From the IMG/VR virus record IMGVR_UViG_2579778784_000004: 19,299 bases of DNA; one strand, written 5' to 3'. The notes below the pieces were generated by a model, which was not told where the DNA came from, made no database searches, and worked only from the letters and a program-made list of their open reading frames with translations. Made by a program: the position numbers and the translations under genes. Positions 1 to 5,508 of this stretch are shown here, piece by piece. The stretch's first letter is position 1. Each line of letters opens with the position of its first letter. Origin of the DNA: a virus. Lineage: Duplodnaviria > Heunggongvirae > Uroviricota > Caudoviricetes.

Positions 1-537
1 CTGGGTATAACGGCAAAACAAATTGCCGAAGCCACAGGTAAGAAAAATATGGTTTCCCACTGGTTTGGTGCCAGTCAGTGGCAGTTGCCGAATGAGGCTG
101 ACTATCGGAAGTTACAGGCACTGTTTTCCCGTATAGCGGCAGAGAAGTTTCAGGAACAACAACTGGAACAACCACACCACCAGCTGGTGGCATCTTATGA
201 TTCACTGAATCGCAAATATTCTGAATTGCTGGATGAGTTTAAATCTCTCCGGCGCTATTTCTCCGTATCAGTCTCCGTGCCTTATACCGATGTCTGGACG
301 CATAAGCCCGTTCAGTTCTACCCGGGTAAACATCCGTGCGAGAAACCGGCGGATATGCTCCGGCAAATAATCAATGCCAGTAGTCGACCTGGTGATCTGG
401 TTGCTGATTTCTTTATGGGATCCGGTTCCACAATAAAAGCAGCAATGGCGCTGGGGCGTCGGGCGTTAGGTGTTGAACTTGAGTCAGAGCGGTTTAATCA
501 GACGGTGAAAGAGGTAAGTGAACTGGTGGGGAAATAA
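1..537 (+). CDS. DNA methyltransferase (N6-adenine/N4-cytosine class), C-terminal part; 5-prime end lies outside the window
   Basis: The frame is open from nt 1 (LGITAKQIAEATGKK... precedes the first Met at 49). C-terminal region HPCEKPADMLRQIINASSRPGDLVADFFMGSGST matches the HPTQKP...DPFxGSG SAM-binding end of beta-class amino-methyltransferases. Stop at 535-537. Confidence 0.75.
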   Translation: MGITAKQIAEATGKKNMVSHWFGASQWQLPNEADYRKLQALFSRIAAEKFQEQQLEQPHHQLVASYDSLNRKYSELLDEFKSLRRYFSVSVSVPYTDVWTHKPVQFYPGKHPCEKPADMLRQIINASSRPGDLVADFFMGSGSTIKAAMALGRRALGVELESERFNQTVKEVSELVGK

Positions 538-544
538 TTCTGGT

Positions 545-570
545 GGCCACGTTGCGTGGCCTTTTTATTT
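545..570 (+). terminator. Rho-independent terminator between the methylase gene and the holin (possible tR-prime analogue)
   Basis: Perfect 7-bp stem GGCCACG/CGTGGCC (545-551 / 555-561) with 3-nt loop, followed by TTTTTATTT. Confidence 0.7.
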
Positions 571-613
571 CCAACACAGCACCCGCAAATATCGCGAGGT
601 GAGAGATGACGAA

Positions 614-940
614 ATGCCTCATAACCCAAATACCTGGCTGGACTTGGTCCAGAGCTGGTGGCGTGGAGACACACCGCTGGGTGCAGTGATTATGTCGATC
701 GTTATGGCTGGTTTGCGCATCGCCTATTTTGGCGGTGGTGGTGGCTGGAAGCGAAAAACGCTCGAGATTTTGCTATGTGGCGCTCTGACGCTGACCTTTG
801 CATCCGCTCTTGAGTATGTCGGATGGCCTAAATCACTTTCTGTTGCCATTGGTGGTGGGGTGGGGCTGATCGGTGTCGATGCTATTCGTGGGGCTGCAAT
901 GCGAGTAATCGGTAACAAATTTGGTGGCTCTAAGGAGTAA
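614..940 (+). CDS. Holin, class I (lambda S-like, three predicted TM segments)
   Basis: 108 aa; hydrophobic stretches (LGAVIMSIVMAGLRIAYF, LEILLCGALTLTFASAL, LSVAIGGGVGLIGV) and a charged C-terminal tail; sits immediately upstream of the endolysin. ATG at 614 follows GAGGTGAGAG. The track ORF start at 518 would run through the terminator hairpin, so it is not used. Confidence 0.7.
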   Translation: MPHNPNTWLDLVQSWWRGDTPLGAVIMSIVMAGLRIAYFGGGGGWKRKTLEILLCGALTLTFASALEYVGWPKSLSVAIGGGVGLIGVDAIRGAAMRVIGNKFGGSKE

Positions 941-943
941 TTT

Positions 944-1420
944 ATGCAGGTACTAAATTCCCAGCGTAAAGCTTTCCTTGATATGGTGGCTTGGTCAGAA
1001 GGAACGGATAACGGGCGACAACCGACACGTAATCACGGTTATGATGTTATTGTTGGCGGCGAACTGTTTACTGATTACTCTGATCACCCTCGCAAACTTG
1101 TCACGCTAAACCCCAAACTCAAATCAACAGCCGCCGGACGTTACCAGCTTCTTTCCCGTTGGTGGGATGCTTACCGTAAACAGCTTGGTTTGAAAGACTT
1201 CTCCCCCAAAAGCCAGGACGCAGTGGCATTGCAGCAGATTAAAGAGCGTAGCGCTTTACCTATGATTGATCGCGGTGATATCCGTCAGGCTATCGACCGT
1301 TGCAGCAATATCTGGGCTTCACTGCCGGGTGCTGGTTATGGCCAGTTCGAGCATAAGGCTGACAGCCTGATTGCAAAATTCAAAGAAGCAGGCGGAACGG
1401 TCAGAGAGATTGAGGTATGA
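944..1420 (+). CDS. R: Endolysin, lambda R-type lytic transglycosylase
   Basis: 158 aa; near-identical over most of its length to lambda R as I recall it ([22 protein letters not shown]..., [61 protein letters not shown]). AAGGAG Shine-Dalgarno before ATG 944. Confidence 0.95.
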
Positions 1421-1860
1421 GCAGAGTCACCGCGATTATCTCCGCTCTGGTTATCTGCATCATCGTCTGTCTGTCATGGGCTGTTAATCATTACCGTGGT
1501 AACGCCATTACCTATAAAGAACAGCGCGATAAAGCCACGTACATCATCGCTGACATGCAGAAGCGTCAACGTGATGTAGCAGAACTCGACGCCAGATACA
1601 CAAAGGAGCTTGCTGATGCTAACGCGACTATCGAAAGTCTTCGTGCTGATGTTTCTGCTGGCCGTAAGTGGCTGCGCGTCAAAGCAGTCTGTCCGGACAT
1701 GCATAAAACCACCGCCACCTCCGGCGTGGATGATGGCTCCAGCCCCAGACTTACTGACACCGCTCAACGGGATTATTTCGTTCTCAGAGAGCGCATCGAA
1801 ACCATAACTAAACAATTGAATGGCCTGCAAGAGTATGTGAGATCACAGTGTTCATATTAG
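1417..1860 (+). CDS. Rz: Rz i-spanin (inner-membrane spanin subunit)
   Basis: 147 aa; N-terminal TM segment ([16 protein letters not shown]) followed by a coiled-coil periplasmic domain; ATGA overlap with the R stop; position and length as lambda Rz. Confidence 0.9.
1610..1807 (+). CDS. Rz1: Rz1 o-spanin lipoprotein, embedded in the +1 frame of Rz
   Basis: Lipobox LAVSGC followed by the proline-rich [10 protein letters not shown]...LTPLNGIIS stretch characteristic of lambda Rz1. Lies entirely inside Rz. Start uncertain (1610, 1616 or 1649). Confidence 0.8.
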
Positions 1861-1898
1861 AAAAGTCTTATCATAAGATTTTTGTATATGGATGCATT

Positions 1899-2273
1899 AT
1901 GTCTCAATACGCTCACGCTGCTTTAATCGCTTATCATTTGGTTGCTGATAGCTCAATGCCTCCTCGTGATGCATGGGATGCAGCTGTCGCTGAGGTTACA
2001 GAAAGCGAATCGTCAAGAAAGAAGGTATGCCCAAGGGCAACATTTCTCGCCCTGGCGGATAGCGGTTACCTCAAGAATGTAAAACCACAGCATGGAGAGA
2101 AAAAGGGCGGTAAGTTGTACCAAAGGGCAATTGAAGTTGCGAATCTGATTCTTGATTTGCCCGGAATTAGCAAAGCTGAGCTAGTTGATAAAACTTGCTA
2201 TAAAGACAGGCAAGGGTCTTATGACATTGCTCTAACTCTCGCTCAGCACGGATTACTCCAGCGTCCTCAATAA
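1899..2273 (+). CDS. Hypothetical protein; candidate moron (cargo gene) between the lysis cassette and cos
   Basis: ORF of 124 aa from ATG 1899 (the track ORF starts at GTG 1848 inside the Rz 3-prime end). Visibly more AT-rich than the flanking phage genes, followed directly by an intrinsic terminator. No TM segments and no motif I can assign. Confidence 0.5.
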   Translation: MSQYAHAALIAYHLVADSSMPPRDAWDAAVAEVTESESSRKKVCPRATFLALADSGYLKNVKPQHGEKKGGKLYQRAIEVANLILDLPGISKAELVDKTCYKDRQGSYDIALTLAQHGLLQRPQ

Positions 2274-2291
2274 TATATTAAGTGATTTATG

Positions 2292-2315
2292 GCCTCGCTT
2301 TTAGCGGGGCTTTTT
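2292..2315 (+). terminator. Rho-independent terminator downstream of the moron ORF
   Basis: Stem GCCTCGC/GCGGGGC (one G-U wobble) with loop TTTTA, followed by TTTTT. Confidence 0.65.
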
Positions 2316-2720
2316 CATATCTGAATCTCACCATGCATATCATCACCTGACTGGAACGTCAGGAGAATTCGTTACCGGGATTCGATAAAGGTATTCAAGC
2401 CTGACACATTATGCGCTGTATCGTCGCCGTATTCCCGCATTAACCATGACCGTAGCCCTACGGGGAACTCCTTCTGCGCGAGTGTGCGGGAATAATCAAA
2501 AACGATACACACCGGGTTTTTACCGCGTTTATGATTCGCGGGTTTGTCCCTCATGCTCGCCAGTCCTGTGCGGGGGTGGAAGAAACAGGACACTTACACT
2601 GATTCTTGTGAGCATGATGCTATGCCTTTCTGGATTATCCCGATGCCATTCATGCAGGGTGCTGTATCAGACGCTCGTCAGAGCTGTCAGGCTGACGGGT
2701 CCTCCCGGTGGGGTGGCCTG

Positions 2721-2742
2721 CCACGGGGCGGGAGCGTCGCGG
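2721..2742. other. Candidate cos site (cosN-like; putative 12-nt cohesive-end segment GGGCGGGAGCGT at 2726-2737)
   Basis: ccACGGGGCGGGAGCGTCGCGG resembles the lambda cos junction ACG|GGGCGGCGACCT|CGCGG as I recall it, and is followed by a TGAAATTT motif. It lies about 190 nt upstream of the small terminase start, the same spacing as cosN to Nu1 in lambda. Confidence 0.55.
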
Positions 2743-2911
2743 AAAAAGGCTAGTTTTTGAAATTTCATTCGTCATCACCACTACTGTAATAGATTGATAT
2801 TACAGTGGTTTTATTTTTATGGTGTCGATTTTGATTGTTTTTTGTTCATCACTAACACCGTTTGCCTAAAGTTGTTCGCAAGATGCATGTTTAAAACATT
2901 CTGGAGCGGGT

Positions 2912-3406
2912 ATGGATCGAGAGTTGAAAAATCTGACGCTGAATATCAGTCAACTGGCGGCACTGTCAGGTGTACATCGCCAGACTGCTGCGGCAAGGCT
3001 GCAAAATCTACCCGTTGCAGGGGGGCATGAAAGCAACCTCAAGCTTTATCGGGTGGTTGATATTGTGTCGGCATTTCTGGCATTACCACCGCCGGTTGCA
3101 GAAGGCGAAATGGACGCGCATGAGCGCAAAGCCTGGTATCAGTCTGAACGTGAGCGTCTTAAGTTCGAACAGGAAACGGCACAACTCATTCCGGCCAGTG
3201 ATGTCAGACGGGAGTTTGCCATCTGGGCAAAAGCGGTCGTGCAGGTGCTGGAGACATTACCGGATATTCTTGAACGTGACTGCGGTCTGCAGCCTGCCGC
3301 TGTGAGCCGTGTTCAGTTCATTATTGATGATCTGCGCGATCAGATAGCCCTGCGGGTGACTGAAGCAGGTGCGGATGATGAGGAGGAATTACAGCAGGAG
3401 GAGTAA
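2912..3406 (+). CDS. Terminase small subunit (Nu1-like, N-terminal HTH)
   Basis: 164 aa; N-terminal HTH-like segment (LTLNISQLAALSGVHRQTAAARLQ) and an acidic C-terminus, like lambda Nu1. Directly upstream of, and TAATG-coupled to, the large terminase gene. Confidence 0.8.
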   Translation: MDRELKNLTLNISQLAALSGVHRQTAAARLQNLPVAGGHESNLKLYRVVDIVSAFLALPPPVAEGEMDAHERKAWYQSERERLKFEQETAQLIPASDVRREFAIWAKAVVQVLETLPDILERDCGLQPAAVSRVQFIIDDLRDQIALRVTEAGADDEEELQQEE

Positions 3407-5508
3407 TGCTGAATCAGGAAACCGCAAAGGCAGCACGAACCGATTCAGGTTATATCCTTCGAGCACCGAGACGAATGCGGGTTGCTGATGCCGTTGCTCA
3501 GTATATGCGGGTGCCCATGGGGGCAGGGAACTCAGTCCCGTGGGATCCGCTGGTGGCACCGTATGTTATTGAGCCGATGAACTGCCTGGCCTCGCGTGAA
3601 TACGACGCAGTGATATTTGTTGGCCCGGCACGAACCGGCAAGACTATCGGCCTGATTGACGGCTGGGTGATTTACAACGTGATTTGCGACCCTGCGGATA
3701 TGCTGATCATTCAGATGACGGAGGAAAAAGCCCGCGAACACTCCAAAAAACGACTCGCCAGAACGTTTCGCGTCAGCCCGGAAGTGGTCAGTCGCCTGAG
3801 TCCGAACAAAAATGACAACAACGTTTATGACAGAACATTCCTTGCTGGCAACTACCTGAAAATCGGCTGGCCGTCAGTCAATATCATGTCCTCATCAGAT
3901 TATAAATGCGTCGCGCTGACGGATTATGACCGTTTTCCGGAAGATATTGATGGCGAGGGGGATGCCTTCTCTCTTGCCTCAAAACGTACCACCACATTTA
4001 TGTCCAGCGGTATGACGCTGGTGGAGAGTTCCCCCGGCAGGGATGTGAAGGATGTGAAATGGCGACGGACTTCACCGCATGAGGCTCCACCAACCACGGG
4101 GATCCTGTCGCTCTATAACCGTGGTGATCGCCGTCGCTGGTACTGGCCCTGTCCACACTGTGGTGAGTATTTTCAGCCCTGCGGCGATGTGGTTGCTGGT
4201 TTCCGTGATATTGCCGATCCCGTGCTGGCAAGTGAGGCGGCTTATATTCAGTGTCCTTCCTGTTCAGGACGGATTATGCCTGAACAAAAACGTGAGCTGA
4301 ACGGACGTGGGGTCTGGTTGCGGGATGGTGAATCCATCAATGCGGATGGCAGTCGTTATGGTGATCCCCGACGCTCACGTATTGCGTCATTCTGGATGGA
4401 GGGTCCGGCAGCTGCTTACCAGACACTCTCGCAACTCGTTTACAAACTGCTTACTGCAGAACAGGAATACGAGACAACCGGAAGTGAAGAAACACTCAAG
4501 ACGGTTATCAATACCGACTGGGGATTACCTTATCTTCCCCGCGCCAGCATGGAGCAACGAAAAAGTGAACTGCTTGAGCAGCGGGCAGAGCCAGTTCCTT
4601 CCCGCAGTGTGCCGGATGGCGTTAATTTCCTTGTGGCGACAGTGGATGTGCAGGCGGGACGTCATCGCCGTTTTGTGGTTCAGGTAACGGGCTATGGCAG
4701 CCGTGGCGAACGCTGGATTATTGATCGTTACAACATCACGCAGTCATTGCGCGGTGACAGCGACGGGGAGAGCCAGCGAATTGATCCGGCCAGTTATCCG
4801 GAAGACTGGGATGTCCTGCTGACGGATGTTTTTCATAAAAGCTGGCCGCTGGCCTCCGATCCTTCTCAACAAATGCGACTGATGGCAATGGCGGTGGACT
4901 CCGGCGGTGAAGACGGGGTCACTGATAATGCCTATAAATTCTGGCGTCGTTGCCGTCGTGATGGCCTTGGTAAACGTATTTACCTGTTTAAGGGCGACAG
5001 CATCCGGCGCGCAAAACTGATCACCCGTACATTCCCTGATAACACCGGACGAACGGGCCGACGGGCGCAGGCCGCAGGTGATGTGCCGCTCTGGCTTCTT
5101 CAGACGGATGCCCTGAAAGACCGGGTGAATAACGCGTTATGGCGTGACTCGCCAGGTCCCGGCTATGTGCATTTCCCTGACTGGCTGGGGAGCTGGTTTT
5201 ACGACGAACTGACGTATGAAGAGCGGAGCAGTGACGGGAAATGGAGTAAGCCGGGGCGCGGTGCCAACGAAGCTTTTGACCTGATGGTGTATGCCGAGGC
5301 TCTGGTCATTCTGCATGGATACGAAAAGATCCGCTGGCCGGATGCACCGGAGTGGGCGAGCCGGGAAACCTGGCTGGAGTGTGTCCCGGACAGTACCGAA
5401 CCGTCACCCACACCGGAACCTGTATCCACGCCTGTTAAAAAACAAAAACGGAAGAAAACAGTAACTGACGATGTTAACCCCTGGCTGACTTCCGGAGGAT
5501 GGTTATGA
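3406..5508 (+). CDS. Terminase large subunit (GpA family)
   Basis: 700 aa; Walker A-like VGPARTGKT; CPHCGEYF zinc-binding/nuclease-region motif comparable to lambda gpA ACPHCGEE; AGGAGGAG Shine-Dalgarno. Confidence 0.93.
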   Translation: MLNQETAKAARTDSGYILRAPRRMRVADAVAQYMRVPMGAGNSVPWDPLVAPYVIEPMNCLASREYDAVIFVGPARTGKTIGLIDGWVIYNVICDPADMLIIQMTEEKAREHSKKRLARTFRVSPEVVSRLSPNKNDNNVYDRTFLAGNYLKIGWPSVNIMSSSDYKCVALTDYDRFPEDIDGEGDAFSLASKRTTTFMSSGMTLVESSPGRDVKDVKWRRTSPHEAPPTTGILSLYNRGDRRRWYWPCPHCGEYFQPCGDVVAGFRDIADPVLASEAAYIQCPSCSGRIMPEQKRELNGRGVWLRDGESINADGSRYGDPRRSRIASFWMEGPAAAYQTLSQLVYKLLTAEQEYETTGSEETLKTVINTDWGLPYLPRASMEQRKSELLEQRAEPVPSRSVPDGVNFLVATVDVQAGRHRRFVVQVTGYGSRGERWIIDRYNITQSLRGDSDGESQRIDPASYPEDWDVLLTDVFHKSWPLASDPSQQMRLMAMAVDSGGEDGVTDNAYKFWRRCRRDGLGKRIYLFKGDSIRRAKLITRTFPDNTGRTGRRAQAAGDVPLWLLQTDALKDRVNNALWRDSPGPGYVHFPDWLGSWFYDELTYEERSSDGKWSKPGRGANEAFDLMVYAEALVILHGYEKIRWPDAPEWASRETWLECVPDSTEPSPTPEPVSTPVKKQKRKKTVTDDVNPWLTSGGWL

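Follow-up and report, generated by a model that had tools for sequence, protein, structure and literature searches.

Where would the terminase cut this genome, and does the DNA between its lysis genes and its packaging genes hold a complete site for the purpose? We addressed this around positions 2697-2911 of the window, by which we mean the whole stretch of viral DNA that was analysed (19,299 nucleotides; IMG/VR record IMGVR_UViG_2579778784_000004). Our reading is that this interval is very probably a complete, uncut cos of an integrated lambdoid prophage whose head module is of the mEp460 / Ayreon / cdtI / Gifsy-2 type. The initial annotation had placed a cos between lysis genes upstream and packaging genes downstream, and this setting is borne out, with Rz and a DUF6979 gene on one side and the genes for TerS, a gpA-type TerL and a portal protein on the other (Table 1).

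Table 1. Positions in the window of the predicted cos elements and the neighbouring genes; bp numbers count from the predicted left end.
Feature	Sequence	Positions	Strand	Remarks
Rz lysis gene		1417-1860		upstream of cos
cosQ-like heptamer	GGGTCCT	2697-2703	+	exact match to the heptamer at the corresponding place in lambda
cosN (predicted)	CG / GGGCGGGAGCGT / CG	2724-2739	.	predicted overhang 2726-2737
I2-like spacer	CGCGGAAAAAGGCTAGTTTTTGAAATTTCATTCG	2738-2771	+	poly-dA and poly-dT tracts, from cosN to the first R-like site
R3-like candidate TerS site	TCATCACCA	2772-2780	+	bp 47-55
Inverted repeat		2780-2809	.	9-bp perfect arms, then T-run GGTTTTATTTTTA
I1-like IHF consensus	TATCAATCTATTA (WATCAANNNNTTR)	2787-2799	-	centre of the inverted repeat
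R2-like candidate	TGGTGTCGA	2820-2828	-	inverted R3 copy, 2 mismatches, bp 95-103
R1-like candidate	TCATCACTA	2846-2854	+	direct R3 copy, 1 mismatch, bp 121-129
terS		2912-3406	+	164 aa; Pfam DUF1441, 8.8e-41; PHROG 141 'terminase small subunit', 5.7e-73
terL		3406-5508	+	700 aa; GpA_ATPase PF05876, 8.6e-72; GpA_nuclease PF20454, 1.1e-85

Predicted cosQ and cosN and candidate cosB elements

The proposed cos junction, ACGGGGCGGGAGCGTCGCGG, lies at 2723-2742, just as the initial annotation had it. Within it a 12-mer is bounded by two CG dinucleotides (2724-2725 and 2738-2739) that are identical to those of lambda, and the nicks are predicted to fall at 2725/2726 on the top strand and at 2737/2738 on the bottom strand, which would leave a 12-nt 5' overhang. 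We fetched the lambda ends for comparison, and the claim of four differences in the overhang proved correct: 8/12 bases of GGGCGGGAGCGT equal those of the lambda sequence, GGGCGGCGACCT, with bases 1-6 being lambda's and all four differences (bp 7, 8, 9 and 11) lying in the right half. According to the Feiss lab (PMC4669245), natural variation in cosN is concentrated in bp 7-12 and spares cosQ, the CG flanks and the left half; thus, the differences seen here fall in the half that was already reported to be naturally variable. Judged by these bases, it is plausible that the ends would be incompatible with lambda cos, as had been suggested. A phage with a 2-bp mismatch between its cohesive ends is still viable, with a yield of about 25% (Feiss et al., PMC4669245).

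The cosQ-like heptamer is separated from the predicted top-strand nick by 22 nt, against 23 nt in lambda. The GGGTCCT heptamer upstream of the lambda cos junction is cosQ, and relatives of the window carry at this place either the same seven bases or the variant GGTACTCC. cosQ has been described as a highly conserved 7-bp site (PMC4669245). Homology between the window and phi458 / 606R10 starts just 5' of the heptamer. The initial annotation missed this element, its span beginning at 2700, inside the heptamer. A cos counts as lambda-like when its cohesive ends are 5', 12 nt long and significantly identical in sequence to lambda's, differences being tolerated mainly in bp 7-12 (PMC4669245). Three features by which such sites are recognised are present here, namely 12-mer identity to lambda, CG flanks 12 bp apart and a 7-bp cosQ about 20 bp upstream of cosN. 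We found the composite motif GGGTCCT-N20-CGGGG-N9-CGCGG a single time in the window and in 0/200 shuffles. A 104-aa open reading frame (2446-2760) runs across both cosQ and cosN; we rejected it as a gene, as it matches no Pfam family and has only a 27-residue match in PHROG.

To the right of cosN the sequence is AT-rich (CGCGGAAAAAGGCTAGTTTTTGAAATTT, 2738-2765), as is lambda I2 (bp 18-50), which is conserved and essential (PMC4856287). Bases 13-33 of this spacer region (CGCGGAAAAAGGCTAGTTTTT) are identical in cdtI, PhiR40_1, phi458 and 606R10 although cosB or TerS differs among them, are nearly invariant in 79 close relatives and are strongly conserved in a more diverse set. The position of TCATCACCA agrees with that of lambda R3, reported at bp 50-65 (PMC9026076), making it a candidate for a TerS binding site, and relatives have (G)TCATCATCAT or CATCACCACC at bp 45-57. 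Together with the two further R-like 9-mers it flanks the IHF site (bp 47 on the plus strand, 95 on the minus strand and 121 on the plus strand), an arrangement that is marginal when the window is taken alone, as 6% of shuffles do equally well. Across the family, RTGTCGA, at about the place of the R2-like candidate, is followed 21-22 nt later by GTTCRNCW, at that of the R1-like candidate, in 32/48 loci, and the same layout of R3, inverted R2 and R1, with other motifs at the same distances, recurs in Fels-1, Gifsy-2, LLS and many genome loci. The candidate elements follow the order of lambda cosB, R3-I1-R2-R1 (PMC9026076), but are packed more closely.

The perfect 9-bp inverted repeat that had been noted, ACTGTAATA-N6-TATTACAGT, is present (arms 2783-2791 / 2798-2806), and a repeat search extends it to arms of 12 nt (2780-2791 / 2798-2809) with one mismatch and 92% complementarity. 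The initial annotation offered it as a cosB/IHF or small-terminase site. The first part of this proposal stands to the extent that the repeat frames an IHF consensus, but better candidates for R sites lie outside the repeat. That consensus is the sole perfect match in the 19.3-kb window, for which 0.47 are expected window-wide; its core, YAANNNNTTGATW, is kept in 76/79 unique close relatives, with the changes concentrated at the N positions; and cdtI has a perfect IHF consensus at bp 64-76, offset by 2 bp, within an otherwise unrelated cosB. The repeat itself keeps 8-12 of its 12 pairs in 78/79 unique relatives. Its few changes among the 79 are mostly non-compensatory and give no informative signal of covariation, and Rfam returned over this region just a sub-threshold chance match at 2237-2318. 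The simplest reading of the inverted repeat is that it frames a predicted I1-like IHF site.

Finally, terS had been said to begin at the distance from cosN at which Nu1 begins in lambda. The figures are indeed close (counted from the predicted left end, terS opens at base 187 with its ATG at 2912, and lambda Nu1 starts at base 191), but the distance is not diagnostic, since values among relatives span 54-235 nt and mostly lie at 97-138.

Conservation of the site and the ends of related genomes

To place the site among its relatives we used loci encoding TerS homologues, comprising 66 genome loci and 80 IMG/VR loci, the latter with TerS at least 99% identical. The spacing between CC[AG][CA]G and CGCGG is exactly 12 bp in 55/56 anchorable diverse loci, drawn from Enterobacterales, Pasteurellaceae, Marinobacter and other sources. 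In this diverse set, C at -5, G at -1 and G at +3 are each conserved at 98%, and positions 4-12 of the overhang are variable; the conservation of positions 13-17 and of the T-run is partly circular, because both belonged to the anchor. The closer IMG/VR loci have CG flanks 12 bp apart in 80/80 cases, and 57/80 are identical to the window over a 38-bp cos stretch. Their overhang is GGGCGGGAGCGT in 63, ends in GCGG in 14 (13 by anchored count plus locus L134) and takes another form in 3 with single or double changes, the variation being confined to positions 7, 11 and 12, in keeping with the rule that bp 7-12 are where cosN varies in nature (PMC4669245). Shorter spacings between the flanks occur in some relatives, with 11 bp in VT1-Sakai, 10 bp in CP-1639 and 9 bp in the mEp460_4F5 record, the deletion in the last being seen in that single record only. 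An O157:H7 prophage locus other than the 11-bp variant has the normal 12-bp spacing. Cr-LKS3, a cyanophage whose TerS is 40% identical to the window's, has experimentally determined 5' cohesive ends of 9 nt at a lambda-like cosN (PMC9303873). Given these 9-nt ends and the 9-11-bp spacings, overhang length in the wider family is not absolutely fixed.

Indirect evidence on the nick positions comes from where deposited genomes begin and end. The genome of phage cdtI, reportedly the subject of Asakura et al. 2007, is held as a circular record (AB285204 / NC_009514) that begins GGGCGGGAGCGTCGCGGAAAAAGGCTAGTTTTT, 33 bases identical to window positions 2726-2758, and ends ...GGGTCCTTCCGGTGGGGTGGCCTGCCACG (...CCACG). 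The depositors' base 1 is therefore exactly the predicted top-strand nick. The record of Hafnia phage yong2 opens with CGCGGG directly to the right of the 12-mer, at the equivalent of 2738, and the 12-mer itself stands at its end. Ayreon, whose TerS is 99.4% identical and whose genome was assembled from virion DNA, agrees with the window up to 2728 and picks it up again precisely at 2738, the gap being taken up by about 150 nt of chimeric filler that includes a copy of terS 3245-3316. We read this junction as an assembly break at the physical ends. The proposal of a lambda-type uncut cos is thus upheld by the opening of the cdtI record at the predicted nick, by the 12-bp spacing and by a TerL homologous to gpA.

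The cosQ-cosN-cosB of mEp460, Ayreon, phi458 and vB_EcoS-569R4 match the window, and their TerS proteins are 98.8-99.4% identical. There are small allelic differences, including point changes in the palindrome, and at overhang base 12 mEp460 has G in place of T, as do 13 of the 80 IMG/VR loci by anchored count; 569R4 is 97% identical over window positions 2400-3500. Three of these, mEp460, Ayreon and phi458, are viable phages with the same or a near-identical cos. None of the four records has a cos annotation, and a text search of the literature for the overhang sequence returned unrelated eukaryotic or viral primers only.

Terminase genes and prophage context

The gene downstream of cos had been called a small terminase, a call that PHROG supports, whereas its family in Pfam is not that of lambda Nu1: DUF1441 is the sole Pfam match and membership of Nu1 fails. 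A profile of 28 TerS sequences aligned to lambda Nu1 with hhalign (probability 45%, E = 2e-4) gives a match that is weak, though collinear and with the N-terminal HTH in register. In an AlphaFold (AF2) model of TerS (pLDDT 79.7), Foldseek found nothing at E <= 1e-3 and just weak wHTH / MerR-like matches, among which the best local one was 6hn7_B (72 residues, probability 1.0, E = 0.04, TM 0.57). 6HN7 is the RppC-lambda TerS(1-98) complex, and chain B is taken to be the TerS fragment. The predicted N-terminal domain thus looks like the DNA-binding domain of lambda TerS, and on the strength of the profile and the model the DUF1441 TerS probably acts like Nu1 although it lies outside Pfam Nu1.

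The large subunit is more easily placed. TerL shares 25% identity with lambda gpA across 623 aligned positions (BLASTP, E = 5e-19), and against Pfam it matches the gpA families only, with no match to a large terminase of the P22/T4/SPP1 type or the HK97 type. Sequence searches of the PDB with TerS and TerL gave no match. Downstream of terL lie a lambda-family portal gene and then a ClpP-capsid fusion, which RefSeq labels 'ClpP-like prohead protease/major capsid protein fusion'. With the DUF1441 TerS, gpA TerL, lambda-family portal and fused ClpP protease-major capsid protein in this order, the head/packaging module is of the Gifsy-2 / Fels-1 / cdtI / mEp460 type.

An integrated prophage, or else a concatemer-like assembly, had been deduced initially from the uncut state of cos. 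Uncut cos alone is insufficient for this, because many phage records are also deposited in permuted order; the conclusion of an integrated prophage nevertheless holds, because window positions 1-3689 are identical to a prophage integrated in the chromosome of E. coli Combat2C1, with sparse differences beyond. Positions 2600-3000, which are 100% identical to that chromosome, are matched in 2120/5426 complete E. coli genomes. Gene order in the Combat2C1 prophage is integrase, immunity region, Q, holin, endolysin, Rz, cos, terS, terL, head and tail. In RefSeq records the small terminase is labelled just 'DUF1441 family protein', and no cos is marked over the region examined.

What the data show directly are the sequence elements with their order and conservation, the families of the encoded proteins and the location in a prophage. 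The mechanism that we propose is modelled on lambda, and the exact nick positions, the binding of IHF and TerS and any activity of this prophage are predictions. After induction, the small terminase would bind the R-like cosB sites through its predicted N-terminal winged-HTH, and IHF would bend the DNA at the consensus inside the inverted repeat. This would anchor the gpA-type large terminase on cosN, where TerL would make its two nicks 12 bp apart, top strand at 2725/2726 and bottom strand at 2737/2738. The product would be virion DNA with 5' overhangs GGGCGGGAGCGT. Packaging would proceed rightward into terS and terL and would stop at the next cos by way of cosQ (GGGTCCT) and cosN.

Alternative readings and comparison with known systems

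Several alternatives bear on this reading. That the likeness to lambda cosN is a chance product of G+C-rich sequence, with the DNA packaged by a headful (pac) mechanism or through a 3' cos, is barely credible: the analysis found no support for it, the composite motif was absent from all 200 shuffles, TerL matches gpA families alone in Pfam, and the position and spacing of the site are conserved across Enterobacterales and Pasteurellaceae. It is highly improbable, too, that cos is real but is nicked a few bases away or with an overhang of another length, such as 9-11 nt. Such a shift would suit the shorter spacings of VT1-Sakai, CP-1639 and mEp460_4F5, the left contig break of Ayreon at 2728 rather than 2725, and the 9-nt ends measured in Cr-LKS3, which belongs, though distantly, to this TerS/TerL lineage (PMC9303873), but it has against it the CG-flanked 12-bp spacing of 55/56 diverse and 80/80 close loci, the cdtI and yong2 records that open exactly at both predicted nick positions, and the confinement of the 4F5 deletion to a single record. 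The prophage could also be defective, with an intact cos that is a relic never cut, or cut only by the terminase of a helper. A tail-fibre gene fragment that is an annotated pseudogene in the near-identical Combat2C1 prophage points in this direction, and the cryptic state is common among E. coli lambdoid prophages. We nonetheless consider this quite unlikely, given that terS, terL, the portal gene, the ClpP-capsid fusion and the tail genes are uninterrupted reading frames, that the prophage also has integrase, immunity, Q and lysis genes, and that the cos is the same as that of most relatives (the 57/80 loci identical over 38 bp).

A narrower question concerns the inverted repeat, which together with its T-run (2780-2809) might be an RNA hairpin or intrinsic terminator instead of an IHF or TerS element. 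The sequence does score as a weak terminator-like hairpin, with a stem of 12 pairs, a loop of 6 nt and TTTATTTTTA as its tail; its predicted RNA fold, at -17.1 kcal/mol (z = -4.3), is matched in stability by 0/200 shuffles; and LLS-type cosB has a hairpin and T-run at the same place. However, the stem has only 3 G-C pairs, its innermost pair is broken in 50/79 relatives and the changes are mostly non-compensatory, while the IHF core survives in 76/79 with variation in the N positions, and cdtI has an IHF consensus at the same distance without this palindrome. We therefore regard a terminator in place of an IHF site as unlikely, and attach a similarly small likelihood to the function that it might serve, which would be to shield the lysogen's terminase genes against read-through until Q-modified polymerase overrides it. 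This is in any case a minor and non-exclusive rival to the IHF reading, as the roles of terminator-like hairpin and IHF site are compatible with each other. A broader proposal, which we think very unlikely, is that DUF1441-type cosB is a distinct compact solution, with the palindrome doubling as a terminator or insulator that silences the terminase genes of the lysogen, in a lineage that tolerates or sets varied overhang lengths. If this were true, the 9-11-bp variants (VT1-Sakai, CP-1639 and mEp460_4F5) would offer a natural system for studying how nick spacing is gauged.

Returning to the reading of a complete cos of the lambda type, the feature is already known, because the cdtI record of 2007 starts at the same cosN and because the Feiss laboratory has published surveys of such sites. 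It has little importance beyond correct annotation. For annotation its value is that the predicted cos fixes the virion ends and the direction of packaging in a very common E. coli prophage family, and accounts for oddities in deposited genomes, such as the Ayreon junction and the start of mEp460_4F5.

The comparison with cdtI shows how the site is shared between different packaging modules. Like the window, cdtI has the 12-mer GGGCGGGAGCGT and an identical next 21 bases, a left flank that is nearly identical from cosQ, and a TerL with 88% identity, which becomes virtually complete from about residue 380 on. Unlike the window, its cosB is unrelated from base 34, its TerS is 42% identical and the N-terminal half of its TerL has diverged. 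cdtI thus probably carries a different packaging-specificity cassette on the same cosQ-cosN, as read from these sequences. We liken this mosaicism to that of lambda and 21, which share cosQ-cosN and differ in cosB/TerS specificity (PMC4669245), and regard it as a further case of a cosQ-cosN common to phages with different cosB/TerS cassettes.

Phages LLS and mEp213 have the same module, with a DUF1441 TerS (about 57% identical) and a gpA TerL. At the homologous place LLS is annotated with a '5' extended single-strand cohesive site GGGCGGCGCGCT', followed by CGCGGGAAACGGCTAGTTTTT, and its authors inferred this 12-nt 5' end by comparison with lambda and with mEp213 (PMC12315714, where Vahanian et al. 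2017 and M. Feiss are cited). In contrast to the window, overhang bases 7-11 differ in LLS/mEp213 and cosB is shorter: terS comes at base 130, and the R1-like site overlaps its start codon. Relative to the cosN variants of Gifsy-1 and N15 in the Feiss lab surveys, the window adds a change at bp 7, and whereas the head module of Gifsy-1 is of the phage 21/lambda Nu1 type, that of the window is of the Gifsy-2 / Fels-1 type. With lambda itself the window shares the order and approximate spacing of the predicted sub-sites, the cosQ heptamer, the CG flanks and a homologous TerL. It differs from lambda in the rotational symmetry of cosN, which as read from the sequence extends to 8/16 bp here and to 10/16 bp in lambda, and in the greater compactness of its candidate cosB, where the R2-like and R1-like candidates stand at about bp 95 and about bp 121.

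Origins of the DNA flanking cos

The features of the interval between the lysis genes and cos, together with one between the packaging site and terS, are collected in the table below. The hairpin with its following T run resembles an intrinsic terminator; the record of phage Ayreon (MF807953.1) likewise has a terminator annotated downstream of its lysis genes. The coding status of both open reading frames is doubtful: the plus-strand frame gave no Pfam family and a PHROG match of 27 residues only, and for the minus strand RefSeq carries a hypothetical CDS of 183 nt at about 2372-2554. The sequence at 2400-2591 is 85-98% identical to lambda-like phages (434, 'Lambda_4C10' and 2B8), in which the matching region precedes the right end by a few hundred bp. 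This argues that the DNA to the left of cos is, judged from sequence, of lambda-type right-arm origin; the packaging genes are of Gifsy-2 type.

Features of the window between the lysis genes and terS
Feature	Position	Strand	Remarks
G+C-rich hairpin, then TTTTT	2291-2311		shortly after the DUF6979 gene (1848-2273)
ORF	2372-2593	-	lysis-to-cos interval
ORF	2446-2760	+	spans cosQ and cosN
Partial palindrome TGTTCGCAAGATGCATGTTTAAAACA	2873-2898		within the extra bases between R1 and the terS ATG

Apparent exchange within the packaging region

Comparison of window 2726-5508 with positions 1-2832 of phage cdtI revealed a sharply mosaic relationship. The two are identical from cosQ through base 33. 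Divergence then runs through cosB and terS, the latter 42% identical, into the N-terminal half of terL, and beyond about residue 380 of terL the sequences are again essentially identical. This pattern looks like the exchange of a packaging-specificity cassette. Most relatives have the terS start codon overlapped by the R1-like motif GTTCAYCATC, a candidate TerS site; in the window, ~58 additional bases (2855-2911) separate R1 from the terS ATG, as they do in PhiR40-type phages.

Variation at cosQ and cosN in related records

In the Ayreon record, overhang bases 4-12 give way to ~150 nt of chimeric sequence (about 905-1060), which fills the space from the equivalent of window 2728 to that of 2738 and contains a copy of part of terS (window 3245-3316). 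The 'putative late gene regulator' CDS annotated there probably arose through faulty assembly at the cos ends. A prophage of E. coli O157:H7 F6667 has cosQ as GGCTCCT versus GGGTCCT, with cosN otherwise identical, a change that reflects either natural variation in cosQ or a packaging-termination defect.

Upstream of terS in two prophages related to Stx phages, CACG and CGCGG are separated by 11 nt (GGGCGGGCGGG; VT1-Sakai, AP000400) and 10 nt (GGGCGGGCGG; CP-1639, AJ304858), versus the usual 12. These spacings could be true length variants, sequencing errors in G/C runs, or the mark of a defective cos. Positions 1-30 of the mEp460_4F5 record (LR595868.1), equivalent to window 2721-2745, read CCACGGGGCGGGAG-CGCGG. 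Here the 12-mer has lost three nucleotides (CGT), leaving the conserved flanks just 9 bp apart, a deletion absent from all 80 IMG/VR loci and all six other phage records compared; the record represents either a laboratory variant or an artefact of assembly at the genome ends. The resulting spacing equals the measured 9-nt overhang of the cyanophage Cr-LKS3 (PMC9303873).
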